From: a virus
Strand: one strand, 5' to 3'
Virus genome (UHGV): UHGV-0200554
DNA length: 64,000 bases
The notes under the pieces were generated by a model that had not been told where the DNA came from, did no database searches, and worked only from the letters and a program-made list of their open reading frames with translations. Within the stretch, counting starts at the first letter, position 1; each line of letters begins with the position of its first letter. This document shows, piece after piece, positions 231 to 56,693 of this stretch. Made by a program: the position numbers and the translations under genes.

Positions 231-299
231 TATATAGAAAAAATTTACCCCCTACCATTTTTGGTAGATAGTCACGGTACGTAATTAGCCTGCTAACTA

Positions 300-500
300 A
301 ATTTTAGATAGTTTCATGAGTGATTATCACCGTTACTATAAATTGCCGTAACTATAAATCACCGTGCGTTACTATTTTAATTTCACCATGCAACTATAAA
401 TCACGGGCCGTTATTATTTATATAGAAAACTATTACTAACCGTGCGTTATTACCTCAATTTGCTTAGGTTACTATTAATCACCGTAAGTAACTATTTTTT
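300..500. repeat. Iteron cluster A: about 5 copies of AATCACCGTG..(A/T)ACTAT motif
   Basis: Copies near 325, 357, 399, 439, 477; related copies at 13831-13868. Confidence 0.5.
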
Positions 501-539
501 AAATGATAATCATTCTCAAAATATATTGCGTGCATCCCC

Positions 540-860
540 GGTGATTGTCTCCCGGCCCCTGGTGCCCCGGCTTGATTATATAATAACAGATCCGGCCCCC
601 ATGTCAACAGCTTTTTTAGAAAAATATTAGTTACAACATCCTGGCGCCACCTGGCAGGGCCATCATGACCATGATCCGGTCCGGCGCTTGCGCCCTGGTC
701 CATCCTCCGCACATTAGTTACAGCATTCCAACGACCGATCCCCGATAGTCTGCAACCTGGCGGGGCCGCCTGGTCCACTGGACCGCCTCCCCTGGTCCGG
801 TGGGGAGTCCGGCTTGCAATTCAAAATGTGATCTGTGTCAACCTTTCACCATGTAGCTAT
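540..860. other. GC-rich island with clustered CCTGG motifs
   Basis: Seven CCTGG within ~250 bp in an otherwise AT-rich genome; overlapping ORFs lack RBS. Confidence 0.35.
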
Positions 861-2895: not shown

Positions 2896-3171
2896 ATGGC
2901 TATCATCGAAAAAGTAAACGTTCCAGCCACTTATAATAAAGGTTATAACGGTTGGAAAAATTACAATCAGTGGAACGTTGCACTGTGGATCAATAACGAC
3001 GAAAGTTTATACTTCTTTGCCCTGGGCTTGATTAATGAGTGTGGCAATAAAGACGCGGCAGCTGATTTGATGGTTTACCGCTTGAAAGAAGAGGGGATCA
3101 CTCATACGCCTGATGGGGTGCCTTACAATAAAACTAACATCCGCGCCGCTATGGTCGGAATGCCGCACTGA
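2896..3171 (+). CDS. hypothetical protein (91 aa)
   Basis: RBS aagaggat upstream of ATG. Confidence 0.7.
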   Translation: MAIIEKVNVPATYNKGYNGWKNYNQWNVALWINNDESLYFFALGLINECGNKDAAADLMVYRLKEEGITHTPDGVPYNKTNIRAAMVGMPH

Positions 3172-5692: not shown

Positions 5693-5914
5693 ATGAACAT
5701 GGTAAACTTTGAAAAAATTACTAAGCGCAATCATTTATCTGACGAACTACCGGAACGCCGCCAGCGTAACAACAAGCTGAATAAACCGCGTCGATTTGGT
5801 AAACTGTGGCGCAACTATTACGACCGTAATTTACGCCGCCTGTTACTTGAACGTGAACGCCAACAAATGAGATACGCAGCACGGCGGGAACGGATGAAAG
5901 CAGACGAAATTTAA
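5693..5914 (+). CDS. arginine-rich small protein (73 aa)
   Basis: RBS ggag; highly basic, Arg-rich, possibly nucleic-acid binding. Confidence 0.6.
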   Translation: MNMVNFEKITKRNHLSDELPERRQRNNKLNKPRRFGKLWRNYYDRNLRRLLLERERQQMRYAARRERMKADEI

Positions 5915-8450: not shown

Positions 8451-8753
8451 TGGCCCCGCCTCCTGTGTTTAAAATCCTTCCTGTAAGCCCCGCCATTGAG
8501 ATTTACCCGCAAGATAAGCAAGTGTAAAGCCCCACCATTCCAGGCCGTTGCAGGCCCTGCCAGGTGCCTAAAAATCGATTTATACGCTTCCACTATTGCC
8601 AACCTTCAAAGCGATCCAGACTTAAAAGTGTTGCCCCTGCAAAATGAGAATAGTTATCATCTTATAAATTTTTCTTGCAATGTGGTCTGTTGTGTGTATA
8701 CTTATTCTTGAAAGGGGAATACCTCCCCCACCAACAACAAAGGAGTTAAAATT

Positions 8754-9439: not shown

Positions 9440-9706
9440 ATGAAAATGGTAGACGTTAAAGGCATCAAGAACGTTAAAATGCAAAAAAATACTCCCGCAA
9501 ACGTTCTTAAAAAAGCCCTGAGCATCCTAGAAGCACACAACGCAAAAACGGTGCATCCTGTTAAATTAAATTGCGGTTATGGCTATAAATACAATATTAA
9601 TAAAGACTGGAGGCTGTTAAACCGTGATGGCGAATTTAAAGATTGGTTAATTGTTGAGCACTTGGAGTATAATCGTCTGGTTGGCGTAAAAGGCGCTCAT
9701 AAATAA
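9440..9706 (+). CDS. hypothetical protein (88 aa)
   Basis: RBS aagaagagg upstream of ATG. Confidence 0.65.
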   Translation: MKMVDVKGIKNVKMQKNTPANVLKKALSILEAHNAKTVHPVKLNCGYGYKYNINKDWRLLNRDGEFKDWLIVEHLEYNRLVGVKGAHK

Positions 9707-11967: not shown

Positions 11968-12469
11968 TTGTCTGTAGTATAGTGAATCCGGTATTCAAAA
12001 CAGCGGATCATTCCGCGAACGCTATGCGTGATGTGTGCATAAAATAAAATGCCTATAAATTAACCACACCACAAAAAAGCTGTATGTGCATACATAGTTT
12101 TTAAGTTTTTTCAGTTTTCAGCTGTCAAATGTGGGGCATTTTGTGAAGTATCTCACACTTTTCGGCTGATGCACATTTTATATAGCTATGTCAACAACTA
12201 TAAATCTTTATAAAACAGTAAGTTACAAAGTCCATTTTTTGAAAAATCGGGTATAACTATAGGCGCGAAATTCTATTTTTCACGTAGCGTCACGATAAGA
12301 TGTATCTGATAGGTATGTTTTAATTATGCAATATTAATGCATAACCAACATGTGATAAATATTCTCAACAACCCGGCAGATGTATTAAATATGGTGACTA
12401 TTCCACCCCACATTATTTCAGACGGCAACTATTCCGATGTGTGATTAATATACTTTCAGGCGGTGATTA

Positions 12470-12620
12470 TTCTGTATCTCAATAATCTATATAATATAAT
12501 ATTAGTAATATAATTAGATTATGAGATACAAGAAAACATCTAAAATAGTAAAATTACAATTAATGAAAATATATAAATTGCATAAAATAAAATAAGACAA
12601 ATAACAATTTGCGAATGCAA
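12470..12620. other. AT-rich tract (candidate DNA unwinding element)
   Basis: About 150 bp of almost pure A/T (aataatctatataatataatattagtaatataatt...). Confidence 0.4.
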
Positions 12621-13060
12621 TGATCACAATATGCAACGATAACATGGCGCGACCGGAGGGAGCGACATAATAACGCTGAGTGACAATAACACCCCCGTGT
12701 TATTATCCAGCATTATTATCTCGCTAATTTATGATTATCTCATAAATTAACATGTAATAATCCTCAGCGTTATTATGTCCTCCAATAACAATAAAAATTG
12801 TTATGGTAACGCTGAGTTATTACTATGTTAATAAAAGGGCATAAAGCCCGGTACTATGTACCATTAAATAATCTAAAACGATTACGTTTTCTCAGCGTTA
12901 TTGTGTCAAATGTTATGATAACAGTATATAATTATCTTGCTAACTTTCAGTATACATATTCCGCGTAGCGTCATGTGGAGCGTGTAGTAAACCTGTAGCA
13001 AGATAAGAATAACGCTGAGGTATTGTACCGTATGCAACGATAACATGGCGCAACTATAAC
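12621..13060. repeat. Dispersed direct and inverted repeats
   Basis: ATGCAACGATAACATGGCGC at 12631 and 13032; ATAACGCTGAG x3 and its complement x2; TTCCGCGTAGCGTCATG at 12957 and 13555. Confidence 0.6.
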
Positions 13061-13216
13061 AGGCCTAAAGAGTAAGATAAACAATAGTTTATGTGTATAA
13101 TCGGCGGGGCCTCCTGGCTGCGCTGTGTGAAACTATCATGTATGGAAACAGTCCAGGATGTTATGATTTCAGCATGGGATTGTGTGTTTTTGAATTGTGT
13201 ACGGGTAAACTGTGTG

Positions 13217-13270
13217 GGGTAAGTATAGGGGAAGTATAGGGGAAGTATAGGGGAAGTATAGGGGAAGTAT
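13217..13270. repeat. Tandem 11-bp iterons (AAGTATAGGGG x4 plus partial)
   Basis: Perfect 11-bp tandem units at 13221, 13232, 13243, 13254; period matches one helical turn. Confidence 0.7.
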
Positions 13271-13578
13271 GCCTAACAAATTTCGTTCTTTTTGTCAACA
13301 ATTTTTCTATGAAAGTGGTCCGACCAGTTATAAGATGCATCTACGGAGCATGTTATGTAGCTGGTATGGTAGTGTGCCAGTGCAATATGATGCCCGGTCA
13401 TAGCTTGTGTGGTGTACCTGTTACACCAGTAAATAGAATTAATAGCAGGCTAACTACTACAATGATTAATCTTTTAGTGCTGTAATAAACCGCAATTATT
13501 CTCCTTTCGATTGTTTTCGTTTCCTTTCGTTTCTTATCGTTTGAGCTGTGTTTTATTCCGCGTAGCGTCATGCTGAGC

Positions 13579-13618
13579 TGTGGATAAGTCTGTGGATAAC
13601 CCTGCCTCCTGTGGATAA
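13579..13618. promoter_or_regulatory. Three tandem DnaA boxes (TGTGGATAA, complement of TTATCCACA)
   Basis: Exact 9-mer consensus at 13579-13587, 13591-13599, 13610-13618, same orientation. Confidence 0.65.
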
Positions 13619-13830
13619 CTGGCCTGCTATGCCTGCTGTGTGGTACTATTGAACTACTGTACAAATGATCATAAGTGCGTATAATCGGTGTTACGTATGA
13701 TGAACAATACGAAGTAATAATTATTCCCACATGAGAAGGCTTATCATTTACTTAAATGTTGCTGTGGAAAACTGTAACGCATGTTATTATTCAACCCCAC
13801 ACAATGAGGGCGTGAACAGTCCCCCCCTAT

Positions 13831-13868
13831 AATCACTGTGTGCAACTATTAATCACTGTGAGTAACTA
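13831..13868. repeat. Iteron cluster B (AATCACTGTG..AACTA x2)
   Basis: Two copies related to iteron cluster A at 300-500. Confidence 0.45.
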
Positions 13869-14419
13869 CCATGCAATAACTAGGCCAATGGTCGCAAGGC
13901 CCCGGCTATCAATTGCGTAAACAGCCTCGATATTTGAGAATCATTCGCATTATGAGAAGGAGTCGCGTTTCGCCTGCCTAATACCTCAGATGTGAGTCTG
14001 GGTGTATCGGCCCCGCACTACCCCTGCTTCAGGACAGGACCTGCGGTCCGGTGACAACAACTTGTTGTGCACCATTGAGGATATTTGCCCCGGTTTGTAT
14101 GAATACCTCTTCAGGCTGTGTACCTCCCCGTAGGGGGGGTATGGTGAGAGGTAGTACGAATAAAAAAAAAATGAAGCCCTCTTCAGGCCTGTGATATTTG
14201 TGTGGCTGATATTTGTGGGGAATCCAGTATTTACGGGACTCCTGGACAGGGCGGGGAGGTATACACAAAGGAGGTATTATGTTAAAGATATGTTAAAATA
14301 TGTGGTGCTCTTTAGGCATTATTCTTCAATGAAATCAAGTGCTTAGGCTATGTGTGGGTATTTTCTGTGAATAATTGGCATGTTAATCGGATCAAAGAGG
14401 ATTAAAGAAGGGAAATGAT

Positions 14420-14481: not shown

Positions 14482-14856
14482 ATGTTTGAGTTCAAAGCTG
14501 ATGCTCAGGAGTTCTACAACAAAGTTGCTAAGCCTGTTGTGGAGTCTGTTCAGGAACACCCTGCAAGCAGACCTACTTCTGTGGGGATAAAAGGTGTTAG
14601 CAAGTACTACAGAGGTAAACATGTGTATTACAGGGCTTACATCTGGGTAACACGCCACACTGTGAACAAGCAGTTGATCAAAACGTTTAAAACTCTGGAA
14701 GAAGCTGTAGCTCAAAGGCAGGAATGGGAACAGGTGAAGGATATTTTGGACGGGAAAGTAGCGATGGTATTACCTTTTGAATGGGATATGGTGTATGCTT
14801 CTAAATACTGGGAAGTTTATCATGGAATGGCTCAGGAGCAGGATGAAGATTATTAA
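14482..14856 (+). CDS. AP2-domain DNA-binding protein (124 aa)
   Basis: ATG after ggaggtcagg RBS; AP2-like segment GVSKYYRGKHVYYRAYIWV..FKTLEEAVAQRQEW. Confidence 0.6.
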   Translation: MFEFKADAQEFYNKVAKPVVESVQEHPASRPTSVGIKGVSKYYRGKHVYYRAYIWVTRHTVNKQLIKTFKTLEEAVAQRQEWEQVKDILDGKVAMVLPFEWDMVYASKYWEVYHGMAQEQDEDY

Positions 14857-20238: not shown

Positions 20239-20643
20239 CTACTTTTTAATCTCAATTTTGCCGTATGGAGGCATATCATCAAGATTACTGTTTTTAAGCA
20301 TTGTAGCACAATTTTTATCTGGTGTCCACTGTTTTTTATCATTGTCCCAATAATAAGGAGATCTGCTATCAGGATGTTTAATTATAAACACTTCAGGTGC
20401 TGTTGTCAAGTCAATTTTTTCAAAATCTACGTGGACTTTACCATTAAACCCGCCACGTTGATATCCACGGTCGAAATTTGATCTTGCAAATAAATATCCG
20501 GCTAACCAGCCAGCAGAGACACCATCCCCCGCGATGGCGTAGCCAATTACACGTTTTCTCTTCTGGTGGTCATCCTCAACATCCCAGGCATCTTCCACCA
20601 GAGTAGTTATTTTATACAGATTCACCTCTGTGGGCCTCCTCAT
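20239..20643 (-). CDS. hypothetical protein (134 aa)
   Basis: ORF in leftward block. Confidence 0.5.
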   Translation of the reverse strand: MRRPTEVNLYKITTLVEDAWDVEDDHQKRKRVIGYAIAGDGVSAGWLAGYLFARSNFDRGYQRGGFNGKVHVDFEKIDLTTAPEVFIIKHPDSRSPYYWDNDKKQWTPDKNCATMLKNSNLDDMPPYGKIEIKK

Positions 20644-20974
20644 AGTTCAGAATCATGGCATCTACAAACAACATCCGCATAACGTTGAGGTGTTTGTTCT
20701 TGCGGCTATAATACACGTATGCATCCCCGTTGTCAAACGGAAACTGTGTGTCACCATAAACTTTTTCCAGAGCATTTTCCAGCTCTTCCTGGAGCTGATA
20801 GTACGTCCCTGTATCAAGACCTTGATAAGAGGCATACTCAGCCAGGTTCCCACATAAACCGCGATGATCCTGGAACACAGGATCAGTGTCTTTAGCACCT
20901 CCCCATGCCCAGCTCCTGTACTCCATGTAAAACTGGTACATGAAGTCAGAAGGAATTACTGTCTCAATAACCAT
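20612..20974 (-). CDS. hypothetical protein (120 aa)
   Basis: ORF in leftward block. Confidence 0.5.
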   Translation of the reverse strand: MVIETVIPSDFMYQFYMEYRSWAWGGAKDTDPVFQDHRGLCGNLAEYASYQGLDTGTYYQLQEELENALEKVYGDTQFPFDNGDAYVYYSRKNKHLNVMRMLFVDAMILNYEEAHRGESV

Positions 20975-20983
20975 AACCCACCT

Positions 20984-21283
20984 CTACTCATCTACATATA
21001 TGAGCAGGATACGAGTATCCGGCACCCCAGTTACTTCCCAGTAGCCACCACCTGGATAAACTTTACCAAGCAGTACGCCGATATGGCGACGGATTTTCTC
21101 AACCATCTCTTCCATACGTTGTGCATCTTTGCGTCGGAACATGCGGAATGTGCCGTTTGACAAACGGTATTGGTATTCCATCATCTTATCGACTAATTCA
21201 GCTACACGGTTTACTACCGGATCGTCATCGAGGCCATCAAGTAAACGAACATGACGCATAACTCTCTCCTTACCAGCCTTCAT
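20984..21283 (-). CDS. hypothetical protein (99 aa)
   Basis: ORF in leftward block. Confidence 0.5.
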   Translation of the reverse strand: MKAGKERVMRHVRLLDGLDDDPVVNRVAELVDKMMEYQYRLSNGTFRMFRRKDAQRMEEMVEKIRRHIGVLLGKVYPGGGYWEVTGVPDTRILLIYVDE

Positions 21284-47978: not shown

Positions 47979-48288
47979 TGTTGATAATATAATATAAAAT
48001 TTATTAAAACAATCCAGAAAAATAACCACCCACAGCCTGATCATCTGCTACAAAGCACTGCTTTGTCACTCCAGTGCTGTTGTCAGTGGATCATGATAAT
48101 AATTATCATTAAGAAAGAGATCATTGATCAATTTGTAACATGCATAAAAAGTATGTTGAAGAGAGATCATGGAGGTGGTGGTAAATACCACAGAACTACC
48201 ATCAAACAGACAGCGGAGGGTGTGCTTGGTATTAGCACCCACCTCCTAGTCTATTTTCTTTCTTTAGAAAGAAGAAAATAGTTAGGTG

Positions 48289-52968: not shown

Positions 52969-53261
52969 GGTGGTTACTTGCATTAGCGATTGCACTCACG
53001 TTTTCTATGGCCCTGGTAGGTTGTAGCTCACCTAAAAGTACGCCAGTTACAGTTGCACCGCAGAAAGTTGAACAACTTGCTGTAGAGCCTCCTGCGGCAG
53101 CTATGATCCCACCAGCAATAGCTATCCCCTTGGTGAAAGGTGCACCAGATGCGGATAACTCTGCAATTATGAGGCAGAACAATCTCTCCTGTAGCAATGA
53201 TCGTGCCAAATTAATCATCTTGCAGGATTATGTAAAATCTTTATTCAATAAGGAGAATTAA
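52965..53261 (+). CDS. o-spanin-like lipoprotein (Rz1-like; 98 aa)
   Basis: Signal peptide with lipobox LVGC; proline-rich mature part. Confidence 0.5.
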   Translation: MRWLLALAIALTFSMALVGCSSPKSTPVTVAPQKVEQLAVEPPAAAMIPPAIAIPLVKGAPDADNSAIMRQNNLSCSNDRAKLIILQDYVKSLFNKEN

Positions 53262-54374
53262 TGGCTAAAATGTATGGCCCATGCTCCCGTAAACAACAAA
53301 TGATTCTGGAAAATGATGCCGACTTCCTGATCATTGGTGGGGCAGCGGGTTGTTTGTCAATGCGACATGAGGTGATGACACCTAACGGGTGGATCAGAAT
53401 ATCGGAATGGGATGGTCAAGATATCCTCCAGTTTGATAAAGAAACTGGTAAGGCCATGTTTATCCAGCCTGAAGAGTTTGTTAAGCTGGAATGCGACAAA
53501 CTAACCAGGATTGTGCAGGATGGTATTTGTCAGGAATTATCCGACGAGCACACAGTTCTGTACGTCCCAGAAGACGGAACAGCTTACGGTACACTTAATT
53601 TCGGAGAAGTGGCTGAACAGTATGCTAACGGTGAGTTGGCAATGCGTATGCAGACCACGTTTGTGAACATGGGTGGTACTGGCCTTGGCATTTCTGACGA
53701 AGAGCTGAAAGAAAGGGCAAGATATTACAAATTCACAGATGAGTGGTATAATTGTGATCGTCGTCAGTTGTTGCAGATCTGGTATGAGATTTACCTGAAC
53801 GGTAATGATCCCCATGCCTACGTTGTTCCAACGAAAGAACAGGCTGATTTCTTGCAATACCTCGGATCATCTTTAGGTTTCAACGCACAGATCTTCTTCG
53901 AAGAAGGTTACAAAGTTGTGTTCTCTAATGAACGTGCAGGTACGATTGCTCTTAATAACGATGCAACGTTCGAAGAGTTTGAGCCGGAAGATGGTTACAA
54001 ATATTGTTTTGCTACCACAACAGGCTATTTTATCACCAGACTGGAAAACTGCATTGCAGTGACTGGTAACAGTGGTAAATCCTTTCTTCTACAGCTTCTC
54101 CCACTAAAGATGATAGATGACCCCAACACTTCTGTGGTGATGTTCCGTAGGACAACTCCACAACTGGAAGGTGAAGGTGGTCTGTGGCCTAAAGCACTGA
54201 GTGTGTATCTGGATCTTCCTGAGTACATGAGGCCGAAATTCAGAGAGAAAGACCATAAGTTTACTTTTCCATATTATGATGCAAAGACGGGCAAATGGAA
54301 TAAGAAAAGAGACGGAGCAGTAATCAAATACTGCCATATGGAATACGTCCAAGATAAGCTGAATCATCAAGGGT
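53261..54374 (+). CDS. Terminase large subunit, exon 1 (contains in-frame intein)
   Basis: Walker A GGAAG..SGKS split by intein; ORF ends at TAA at proposed 5' splice site. Confidence 0.7.
53351..54070 (+). mobile_element. Intein (240 aa) inserted in terminase P-loop
   Basis: Starts CLSMRH (Cys1), block-B-like DEHTV, ends TGN followed by Ser; removal restores GGAAGSGKS. Confidence 0.65.
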
Positions 54375-54901
54375 AAACAAACCTGCCCTTCGTGCCTAAT
54401 TCGGTGAAACTCCTTGACAAAAGGACAATACCGAGCTACGGTTAAAGGATTAGTTGAAACCGAGTGTAACGACTATCCCCGATGAGTGTAGGGGAGTAGA
54501 ATCACAAGCGATTGGTGATCCAAACGGCACGCCAAGGAGGGAAGAGCTAGTCTGTTCCACATGGTAACATGTGGCGGGTGTCTTAGCACACCGCGTCGGA
54601 GTAGCGATCCGGCGGGACAAAAGTGGAATATACTTTAATATGTTTTGATGAGGGTTAACTGGTAGCTCTCGTAAAACCTCCCTAATTGCGGGGAAATCTT
54701 TACTATTGACACCACCAACCTATTATGGTAACATAATATTGGCTTCGGAGAAATACCGAAGGTATGGTAATAGCGTGTTGATTTAGATAATCCGCAGCGA
54801 AGCATCCTGATAGGATGTGTGCTCAACGACTATCGCTTACGGGCGTTAGGGCCAAGCGGCTGGGGAAACCCACAGTCTTTTAAGACTGCCGAAACGGGAG
54901 G

Positions 54902-55195
54902 ATGGGAATGTGTAAAACTAAAAAATGTGTAGATTGCCAGAGAGTCCTACCTCTTGAGGATTTCTTTTTATCTTCTAAGAGTAATGATGGGTACTCTGGT
55001 ACATGCAAGGAATGCTATATGTACTACAGAAAGAATGGATCTCGTAGAAACAAGGATATGGTTAAGAGAGATGATGCAGCAGCGTTTATTCAAGATTTGC
55101 TAGAGAAAGGTGAGCTTTTTGAATGCAAATCTTGTCATAAAAGTATGCTCGCTGACAATTTTACACAAAACGTGATTATGGTAGGGTATATCTAG
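54902..55195 (+). CDS. Intron-encoded homing endonuclease, N-terminal zinc-finger part
   Basis: CxxC pairs (CVDCQ, CKEC, CKSC); ends 18 nt before catalytic ORF in another frame. Confidence 0.55.
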   Translation: MGMCKTKKCVDCQRVLPLEDFFLSSKSNDGYSGTCKECYMYYRKNGSRRNKDMVKRDDAAAFIQDLLEKGELFECKSCHKSMLADNFTQNVIMVGYI

Positions 55196-55212
55196 TCACG
55201 GGCAGGTGTAAA

Positions 55213-55497
55213 ATGTGTGAGAAGTTCTATCAGCTTGAGAAGAAATTTCACATAACAAAAGACGAATATTTTCGTCTACTCTCAGATCAAGATTATAAAT
55301 GTGCCATTTGCGGGATATCACTTGATGAGTATAGGTCGCAAGGGTACAGAGATTTCTTTAGTGTTGATCATGACCATAAGACTGGCGCTGTAAGAGGTTT
55401 GCTTTGTGATAAGTGTAACAGAGCTTTAGGTTTTTTCCAGGAGGATGAGGAAACTCTTCTTAAAGCGGCAGAGTATTTACACACTCATAAGATATAG
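55213..55497 (+). CDS. Intron-encoded Endonuclease VII-type homing endonuclease, catalytic part
   Basis: VDHDHKTGAVRGLLCDKCNRALG matches Endo VII motif; stop overlaps intron S element. Confidence 0.7.
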   Translation: MCEKFYQLEKKFHITKDEYFRLLSDQDYKCAICGISLDEYRSQGYRDFFSVDHDHKTGAVRGLLCDKCNRALGFFQEDEETLLKAAEYLHTHKI

Positions 55498-55581: not shown

Positions 55582-56693
55582 ATTGGGAGCAAATCGACTA
55601 CCTGATTTCTCGTATGAGGTCGAAATCGAAATACTCTTCACGGATGGTGATCAGCTGTAACCCGGATTCTGAACACTATTTAGCCAAACTGGTTCGTTGG
55701 TGGCTTGACGACGAGGGCTACCCAGATGAAAGCAAGTGTGGCGTTAAGCGCTATTTCATCCGTAGGGATGGGGAATTTATCTTCGGCGATACGCCAGAAG
55801 AGTTGATCGAGAAGTATACCTATGTTAACGGCAAAGGTGTTGAGATAATCCCAAAACCACTCTCTATCGCTTTTATCGGTGCAACAATCCACGATAACCC
55901 CATCTGCTTGCGTGATAACCCAGAATATCTTGCATTCCTGGAAGGTCTGCCAGAGCTGGAAAAAGCACAACTCCTCTACGGTAACTGGTTCGCTAAGCCT
56001 GAAGGTGCAAACTATTTCAGTCGCACATTCTTGAAAGATGCGGATCATGTCCCCCTCGGAGCAGTTTCTGTAAGAGCATGGGATAAAGCTGGTACAGAAC
56101 GTACCTCTGGCAACAAATTCCCCGACTATACAGCCAGTATCAAGGTCAGTAAGGATAGTGATGGTTACTACTACATCTCCGGTGACTATTGCCCTGAAAA
56201 CGTAGATGATGGCAGATATTCTACGGGCTTGCACGGTAAGTTCTGCAAGAAAGCTGGGGAACGTGATGTTATTATCAAGAAACAGGCAGAGTTTGATGGT
56301 GAGGACTGCGTAATTGTCTTCTCTGTGGACCCCGGTCAGGCAGGTAAGAGTGAGTTTCTTACTTCATCTCGTAAACTTCTTGCCGGAGGGTTCAGGGTAG
56401 AAGAAGACCCAATGCCGTCTAACAAATCAAAACTCACCCGTTTCTCCCCGTTTGCCAACCTTGCCCAACAAGGGATGGTGCGGCTTGTCCGGTCAAGTTT
56501 CGACCCGGATACACTGGAAGCATTTTTGACAGAGCTGGAGAAATTTAACGGCGAACGGTCAACCTTTAGCCGTAAAGATGATTGGGCTGACTCCATTGCT
56601 TCTGCAATTAACTACCTTGAAAAAGAGGAAGTTGCTATGCCATGTGTTATTCCGAAGATTGTTTCACCCTCTATGTATAAGAGGATGATTTAA
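55582..56693 (+). CDS. Terminase large subunit, exon 2 (nuclease domain)
   Basis: In-frame continuation from proposed 3' splice site; followed by UUCG-hairpin terminator. Confidence 0.6.

Follow-up and report, generated by a model that had tools for sequence, protein, structure and literature searches.

Which process is served by two clusters of one short repeat that lie about 13.4 kb apart, in the non-coding DNA upstream and downstream of a block of small early genes on the + strand? The question was raised by a sequence-only reading of 64,000 nucleotides of the UHGV virus genome UHGV-0200554 (the whole of this stretch is called the window, and coordinates refer to it unless stated otherwise), in which a shared DNA-binding protein was proposed, for instance a replication initiator or a boundary or packaging factor.

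The window opens with the + strand small-gene block (approximately 0.95-11.9 kb, all early ORFs <175 aa), followed by a 2.5-kb non-coding region. A - strand block with genes for NrdD, ligase, exonuclease and a Clp-like protease lies 3' of this region (15.3-49 kb), and the late genes, including a split large terminase and the portal, are on the + strand. The portal was 83% identical to that of rV5, with no closer relative in the phage collection, and no near DNA match was found for the first 3 kb of the window; on these two grounds, the window is classified as a new genus-level relative, and a new clade, within the Vequintavirinae (rV5 relatives). Four sister genomes were compared: IMG/VR contigs 140627, 159287 and 157310, and ENA contig OLOT01000016. 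The GC content was approximately 43% in the window versus 40-41% in phage Jab and Septuagintavirus, and GC skew tracked the direction of transcription, giving no independent origin signal. Nothing marked position 1 of the window as a physical genome end: relatives carry homologous sequence further upstream, and no record has the same start.

Other features of the window were recorded. Among the products of the early block are a small basic protein resembling T7 gp1.1 and a protein with a ParE-like toxin domain (5693-5914 and 9440-9706). A 66-nt segment (2935-3000) was 92% identical to 'Campylobacter phage' records (A142 and others); because these records also have an rV5-type portal, they look like misfiled sequences of rV5-like E. 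coli phages. Endonuclease VII/HNH-like ORFs separate the two ORFs into which the large terminase gene is divided (53261-54376, 54902-55497, 55614-56693), a layout that resembles an intervening mobile element.

Both strands of the 64 kb were searched for the motif. The strict pattern AATCAC.{7,9}ACTA gave five matches, at 357(+), 477(+), 13831(+), 13851(+) and 309(-), where roughly 0.2-0.4 would be expected by chance (rough arithmetic). All of these strict-core matches (AATCAC-N7/8-ACTA, 5/5) fell in the two clusters flanking the early block, as the sequence-only reading had claimed for this motif family. The degenerate form AATCACYGTNNGNWACTA, with up to 3 mismatches, gave 17 matches, seven of them inside the clusters, against 6.07 ± 2.44 in dinucleotide shuffles (0 of 100 shuffles reached 17); occurrence of the motif at background frequency throughout the genome, which would have spoken against a special element, was therefore not what the 64-kb search returned. 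The two clusters constitute one genuine cis-element family, specific to the two non-coding regions flanking the early block. The unit of approximately 20 bp has partial dyad symmetry (AATCAC-N5-GTAACT) and is present in both orientations, as expected of a site bound by a dimer, and the repeats are probably the docking site for one putative sequence-specific DNA-binding protein. The coordinates of all these elements and of their neighbours are collected in Table 1.

Table 1. Repeats and associated sequence features in the window.
Feature	Coordinates	Strand	Basis or remark
Degenerate inverted iteron unit AATTACGTACCGTGACTAT	266..288	-	PWM, 16.6 bits; 100% conserved in three clade genomes
Inverted iteron unit, N7 type, TAATCACTCATGAAACTAT	306..326	-	Strict pattern match
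Direct iteron array (cluster 1), nine contiguous units	325..495	+	Pattern and position weight matrix (PWM)
AT-rich, easily melted tract adjoining the last iteron unit	485..525		Fourth least stable 40-mer of the 64 kb
Predicted sigma-70-like promoter site, TTGACA-16-TATTAT with TG	580..607	-	Consensus 11/12
Weak inverted pair of iteron-like units, TAATCACCGCCTGAAAGTAT and TTAATCACACATC	12436..12470	-	Conserved in contig 159287; family membership uncertain
Three consensus DnaA boxes TTATCCACA, one orientation	13579..13618	-	Only perfect boxes in the 64 kb
Fur-box-like palindrome TGAGAAGGCTTATCA	13732..13746		Family pattern
Cluster 2: two full iteron units (13830-13849, 13850-13869) and a partial third, CCATGCAATAACTAG	13830..13883	+	25-28 bits for the full units
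Homology to the first 58 bases of Gotham virion DNA	13921..13978	-	BLAST, 76% identity over 58 nt
Palindrome TGAGAATCATTCGCA	13935..13949		Box-family pattern with one mismatch; the predicted terminal-repeat boundary is 29 bp away

Several other origins of the similarity were considered and rejected. When the two regions were aligned locally, only the iteron itself scored (40), the next best alignment (30) lying within the shuffle range (maximum 32), so that no wider similarity between the regions was accepted. A structured RNA was discarded (no Rfam match at the gathering score; folding z-scores of +1.6 and -0.8), as was an origin in a captured plasmid replicon (neither cluster matched a plasmid), and none of the host transcription-factor motifs considered (IHF, LexA, CRP, FNR, ArcA, CpxR, NrdR) matched the iteron. 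A scan of IMG/VR with the iteron pattern returned 44 matches, all single and taken as chance, except two from contigs of relatives. No iteron-type words common to the two regions were found in Vequintavirus at k=10.

The units of the upstream array (cluster 1) measure, in order, 15, 16, 20, 22, 20, 16, 20, 22 and 20 nt, and end in ACTAT, ATTAT or ATTAC. Only 356-375 and 476-495 are full-strength (27-30 bits) and two others, 398-417 and 434-453, are medium (21-23 bits), the strong units being 42 bp apart; 4 of the 9 direct units thus score at least 21 bits, and the remainder are degenerate, level with the scattered background matches in the window. With two full-strength and two medium units among degenerate ones, the previous count of about five copies at 300-500 is a fair description. 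Tandem Repeats Finder reported 326-365 with period 16. The degenerate inverted unit upstream of the array adjoins the palindrome TTAGCCTGCTAA (285-296), and a homologous element is present in DrSchubert.

The reverse complement of this palindrome occurs at 13443-13454, near the possible inner edge of the terminal repeat discussed below, and the related TTAGC-NN-GCTAA is conserved in the upstream control region (region 1) of DrSchubert and Gotham.

The array was present at the upstream locus in 4/4 clade genomes examined. Contig 159287 and OLOT01000016 retain it with strong units almost unchanged and weak units drifting; in contig 140627, the distal part is inverted and shortened and recognisable units persist, which fits selection on the sites of a symmetric protein. 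Among the clade genomes, conservation of the array region does not exceed that of the flanking DNA, and no array was found at the upstream position in Vequintavirus or Mydovirus. By this comparison, the array was inserted, in this clade only, into a control region that the subfamily as a whole has conserved. The description of matching iterons at both ends of the early block therefore holds for the window and does not extend to the ancestral arrangement, since the array is confined to the window's clade.

The control region that received the array has a fixed order of elements, shared with DrSchubert and DP: it starts with the 38-nt repeats (three copies, 50-224), continues with one or more palindromic boxes and a C-rich block, and finishes with a leftward sigma-70-like promoter site. 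By synteny with DrSchubert, it lies just downstream of the replication-gene module. The AT-rich tract contains the Fur-box-like palindrome TGATAATCATTCTCA (504-518), and the promoter-like site 607-580 aims leftward through the C-rich block into this tract and the iterons; its hexamers are conserved in the clade genomes, and analogous sites were read by eye in DrSchubert and DP. A second promoter-like site (498-527, +) has a palindromic box in its spacer, and cluster 1 lies at about -10 to -200 relative to it.

Additional observations were made in this region. The 38-nt repeat GTACTCGATCTGTTTTTCAAAATCGAAATCGGATTCTG occurs at 50-87, 113-150 and 187-224; its core matches at 91-94% identity in the Vequintavirinae of Salmonella and Cronobacter, and three copies were found in Mydovirus DP, a cross-genus conservation unusually strong for non-coding DNA. 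The promoter-like sites 498-527(+) and 607-580(-) face each other across the C-rich block 535-572, which is conserved across genera, in an arrangement resembling a switch of convergent promoters or an origin primed by transcription. Two relatives have mobile-looking genes here: an HNH-like insertion within the GC-rich segment of region 1 in OLOT01000016 (L053 1136-1890, between the equivalents of window positions 695 and 819), and a 215-aa AP2-like ORF just upstream of region 1 in contig 159287 (L003 2922-3569).

Cluster 2 was detected independently by Tandem Repeats Finder (13830-13868, period 20), and the two related copies noticed earlier at 13831-13868 proved to be full units. Both are kept in contig 140627, and only the second in contigs 159287 and 157310. 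The cluster was then placed relative to the mapped ends of related phages, which have direct terminal repeats of 459 bp in Gotham (PMC7471380, also annotated in the record), 514 bp in KPP-1 (PMC9862379) and 475 bp in Jab (PMC13538427); for Mydovirus DP, a repeat of 514 bp is annotated at both record ends. Position 1 of Gotham corresponds to window 13978 (reversed), from where the Gotham repeat extends toward the early block. Window 13978 is predicted to be the right boundary of the terminal repeat, and the alignment with Gotham base 1 puts cluster 2 110-147 bp inside the predicted repeat. By homology to Gotham, KPP-1 and DP, cluster 2 is predicted to lie in the core of a direct terminal repeat of approximately 0.5 kb, and the sequence-only reading was apt in pointing to genome termini. 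The ends of contigs gave no usable clue: contig 140627 starts at approximately 12509, in the most AT-rich DNA and without terminal overlap, which was read as an assembly break.

The inverted unit 306-326 is identical at 20/21 positions to a site in about 34 Mydovirus genomes. In DP, which has the orientation of the window (order and strand of the genes for the Clp-like and PhoH-like proteins and their neighbours), the annotated 514-bp repeat contains this site, at 153-173 counted from the left end; two palindromic boxes precede it, and a degenerate unit and then a ACCATGCAAT tail, as in cluster 2, follow it. Base-level alignment of the terminal repeats of the window and DP was impossible. By motif order, the Gotham-type and DP-type repeats were judged to have shifted boundaries and a common box-plus-iteron core. 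Vequintavirus retains only the vestigial unit CCACTGTGTGAAC. As far as these genomes allow the motif to be traced, the terminal-repeat core is its ancestral home.

The DnaA boxes near cluster 2 have start-to-start spacings of 12 and 19 (a 3-bp gap separates the first two) and lie 210 bp from the cluster. They are invariant in four genomes, with variable flanks and spacers, and no perfect DnaA box was found in the terminal repeats of DP or Gotham. Among the genomes examined, the boxes and the upstream array co-occur in the window's clade only; this clade has gained three DnaA boxes and amplified the motif at the head of the early operon.

Beside both clusters, a family of 15-bp Fur-box-like palindromes was found (TGA[TG]AA-N3-TT[AC]TCA), with further members at 8645-8659 (an early-block intergenic gap), 12353-12367 (the downstream non-coding region) and 48094-48108. 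Palindromes occupy corresponding places in Gotham and DP, namely the terminal repeat, the region upstream of the early operon and intergenic gaps. Compared with the Fur box TGATAAT-N-ATTATCA, the copy at 504-518 has one mismatch and those at 48094 and DP 134,916 are perfect, while most copies have TTCTCA for TTATCA. These palindromes could be sites for Fur or for a phage regulator, and in the genomes compared it is this palindrome family, not the iteron, that forms the subfamily-wide conserved link between the two regions. Members recorded in related sequences lie at L049 11-161 and 11167 and at L057 10917 and 20562-21102, and three genera carry the family.

The weak inverted pair in the downstream non-coding region adjoins the two least stable segments of the window (12482-12595). 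The DNA between the early block and the predicted terminal repeat (12000-13550) is dense with other repeat families: 4.9 copies of GGGGAAGTATA at 13217-13270, TTTCG-type 10-mers at 13502-13542, and inverted, weakly iteron-like copies of CTCAGCGTTATTATGTC at 12664-13020.

Candidate binding proteins were sought among the neighbouring ORFs. The AP2 protein at 14482-14856, which had been put forward as a candidate, had no Pfam match and weakly matched only the AP2-like tails of HNH endonucleases. At the same place, contig 140627 encodes an intact 236-aa HNH-AP2 enzyme (L051 1818-2528) whose N- and C-termini are shared with the window ORF, the latter carrying an internal deletion of about 112 aa that includes the HNH motif. 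The ORF is 51-52% identical over the compared region in genomes with the same iterons. It was rejected as a stand-alone AP2 protein maintained with the iterons and, as a deletion remnant of a homing endonuclease, is a poor candidate for the binder. No Rep, HTH or initiator family match was obtained among the scanned ORFs flanking either cluster (a subset of the window's ORFs); an initiator gene may also lie beyond the window. A small terminase subunit was looked for without success: the ORFs that precede the large subunit are spanins, and the 235-aa N-terminal part of the large-subunit ORF had no family match and no recognisable DNA-binding domain.

Our tentative preference, held at rather less than even probability, is that the repeats are sites of one, probably dimeric, phage protein and form, with host DnaA, an iteron-type replication origin or origin-control system. 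This explanation was ranked first because the set of features (iterons with a distant partner cluster, DnaA boxes and a melting tract) is most specific to replication systems, and because the DnaA boxes and the array co-occur in this clade only. The ancestral copy would belong to the core of the short direct terminal repeat, flanked in the window's clade by three DnaA boxes; nine direct and two inverted units would have been inserted at the head of the early operon, beside the AT-rich tract and with the leftward promoter-like site aimed in. The protein bound to the large array may then open or prime the DNA there, assisted by transcription; alternatively, looping or handcuffing might bring it together with the sites in the far-off terminal repeat. 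The binding of the repeats by a protein, the choice of a phage protein as binder, and the initiation or control of replication as the outcome are inferred from the sequence features. Consistent with an origin are the head-to-tail units of approximately 20 bp with partial dyad symmetry, nine of them contiguous; the position of cluster 1 against the fourth least stable 40-mer (and of the weak pair 12436-12470 against the least stable); and the three perfect DnaA boxes, which occur nowhere but at 13579-13618 (a distance of 210 bp to cluster 2) and are unchanged in four genomes. The joint gain of boxes and array in this clade alone among the genomes examined, the 11/12 sigma-70-like site aimed into the AT tract and conserved in relatives, the retention of strong units while weak ones drift, the survival of units through the inversion in contig 140627, and the location just downstream of the replication-gene module (DrSchubert synteny) point the same way. 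Distant partner clusters of iterons also have precedents, in R6K (gamma with the alpha and beta origins), P4 (ori/crr) and P1 (incC/incA). Against an origin, no initiator-like gene was found beside either cluster among the scanned ORFs, cluster 1 has no DnaA box and cluster 2 no AT-rich tract, one cluster 2 unit is lost in two genomes, the array is no better conserved than its flanks, GC skew is uninformative and similarity to plasmid replicons is absent. The ancestral position within the terminal repeat would moreover predict a packaging signal rather than an origin.

This last point leads to a different explanation, possible if rather unlikely, in which the repeats serve the recognition of genome ends: the copy in the terminal repeat would be a cosB- or pacB-like loading site for terminase or an end-processing complex, and the upstream array an accessory or decoy site synapsed by the same protein, much as T4 gp16 synapses its two pac-like sites. 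It best explains the conserved terminal-repeat position (cluster 2 at 110-147 bp from the position matching the Gotham virion end; in Mydovirus DP, a near-identical unit in the annotated repeat, 153-173 bp away from the mapped left end; by motif order, an iteron-plus-palindrome core in the repeats of both genera despite shifted boundaries), and the 20/21 cross-genus conservation would suit a partner that evolves slowly, as terminase does. Left unexplained are the distant array, which is the larger and stronger one and sits 13.5 kb from the predicted end with no obvious use in packaging, the DnaA boxes and the AT-rich tract; in addition, Vequintavirus has only the vestige CCACTGTGTGAAC, the scanned ORFs held no recognisable small terminase subunit, and the termini of this phage are placed by homology only. 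We consider it unlikely that the repeats form an operator or roadblock array of a phage transcription regulator, controlling or insulating the early block with the clusters looped together. Dimeric repressors typically bind a pseudo-palindromic core such as the 17-bp one seen here, cluster 1 is immediately upstream of the promoter-like site 498-527(+) and downstream of the opposing 607-580(-), the clusters stand at both ends of the early transcription block, and Fur-box-like palindromes are also common to both regions and to intergenic sites of the early block; nevertheless, nine contiguous sites upstream of one promoter would be unusual, many internal promoters of the early block (Gotham annotation) are out of the array's reach, the ancestral site in the terminal repeat is not at a known promoter, and no regulator gene was found. 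Quite improbable, in our judgement, is that the upstream array is a functionless product of slippage or duplication, with only the terminal-repeat unit functional: most units are degenerate, array conservation is below that of the flanks, and the array is rearranged in contig 140627 and absent from sister genera, but the two best units are nearly intact in three genomes, units persist after inversion, and all 4/4 clade genomes keep the array at the upstream locus. It is very improbable that the array is a second genome-end recognition module, the 13.5-kb early block being handled as a unit; the block would then be duplicated as a long terminal repeat, or delivered and held as a first-step segment. 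Long terminal repeats are known from T5, SPO1 and Twort-like phages. Least probable of all, and in our view very unlikely, is that repeats and DnaA boxes form a T5-like entry or anchoring signal that holds or pauses the DNA during entry and thereby lets the 13.5-kb early block be delivered or expressed first. We know of no report of two-step DNA entry in Vequintavirinae. In T5, related repeat clusters flank the pre-early genes, and the terminal repeat holds DnaA boxes paired at a 3-bp distance (Davison, bioRxiv 10.1101/866236). Flanking repeat clusters, a 3-bp gap between the first two DnaA boxes here, and an early block of roughly 10% of a genome of approximately 140 kb speak for such a signal. 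The T5 model is, however, itself a proposal, the DnaA boxes here are near the predicted physical end and not after the early genes, and the repeats are direct, not T5-type inverted pairs; a search for the T5 injection-stop layout (IRC/IRD) found no inverted 131-bp pair, one box pair 3 bp apart, and direct repeats.

Iteron-type origins, the preferred explanation here, are a well-known kind of element, and this instance is new to the literature searched: nothing was found there on these repeats, and a limited search gave no report of a replication origin or a packaging signal for rV5-like phages. The Vequintavirinae are under development for therapy. The search is now narrowed to a few hundred bases, namely a motif core shared across genera in the short terminal repeat and a subfamily-conserved region at the head of the early operon. 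The clade is also a natural experiment, in which three DnaA boxes were gained and the same motif was amplified 13.5 kb away. The identity of the binder would give a handle on replication start, end recognition or early-gene shut-off; should the repeats turn out to be ordinary operators, the result would be routine, and if the array is a second end module, a recent transition from a short-repeat to a long-repeat genome would have been caught in progress.

Finally, the layout was compared with known systems. With T5, it shares repeat-rich non-coding regions flanking the first-expressed genes, related repeats at two distant places, and consensus DnaA boxes spaced by 3 bp in a terminal repeat, which is a predicted one in the window (Davison, bioRxiv 10.1101/866236, for T5). 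T5 differs in its 10-kb terminal repeat carrying the pre-early genes, its inverted repeat pairs and its eight boxes, whereas the repeat in the window is probably approximately 0.5 kb, with the early genes outside. The lambda operators OL and OR, looped by CI, likewise form two clusters of 17-bp pseudo-palindromic sites flanking a gene block, but with three promoter-overlapping sites per cluster, 2.3 kb between clusters, and the repressor gene in between. Terminase sites (the lambda cosB R sites, T7 pacB, SPP1 pacL/pacR and the T4 pac-like sites) resemble cluster 2 in having short repeated units approximately 100-200 bp from the predicted end, at a position conserved across related genera, and differ in that the window has a second, larger array far from the end. 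Compared with the iteron origins of R6K, P4, P1, SPP1 (oriL/oriR) and lambda (ori), the window has no initiator gene among the scanned ORFs beside the repeats, a separation of 13.4 kb in place of the 1-4.5 kb of the plasmid and P4 cases, and one cluster within a predicted terminal repeat; in common with them, it has head-to-tail, partially dyad-symmetric repeats of approximately 20 bp, an AT-rich tract next to cluster 1, DnaA boxes near cluster 2, and a large array accompanied by a small, distant cluster of the same motif.
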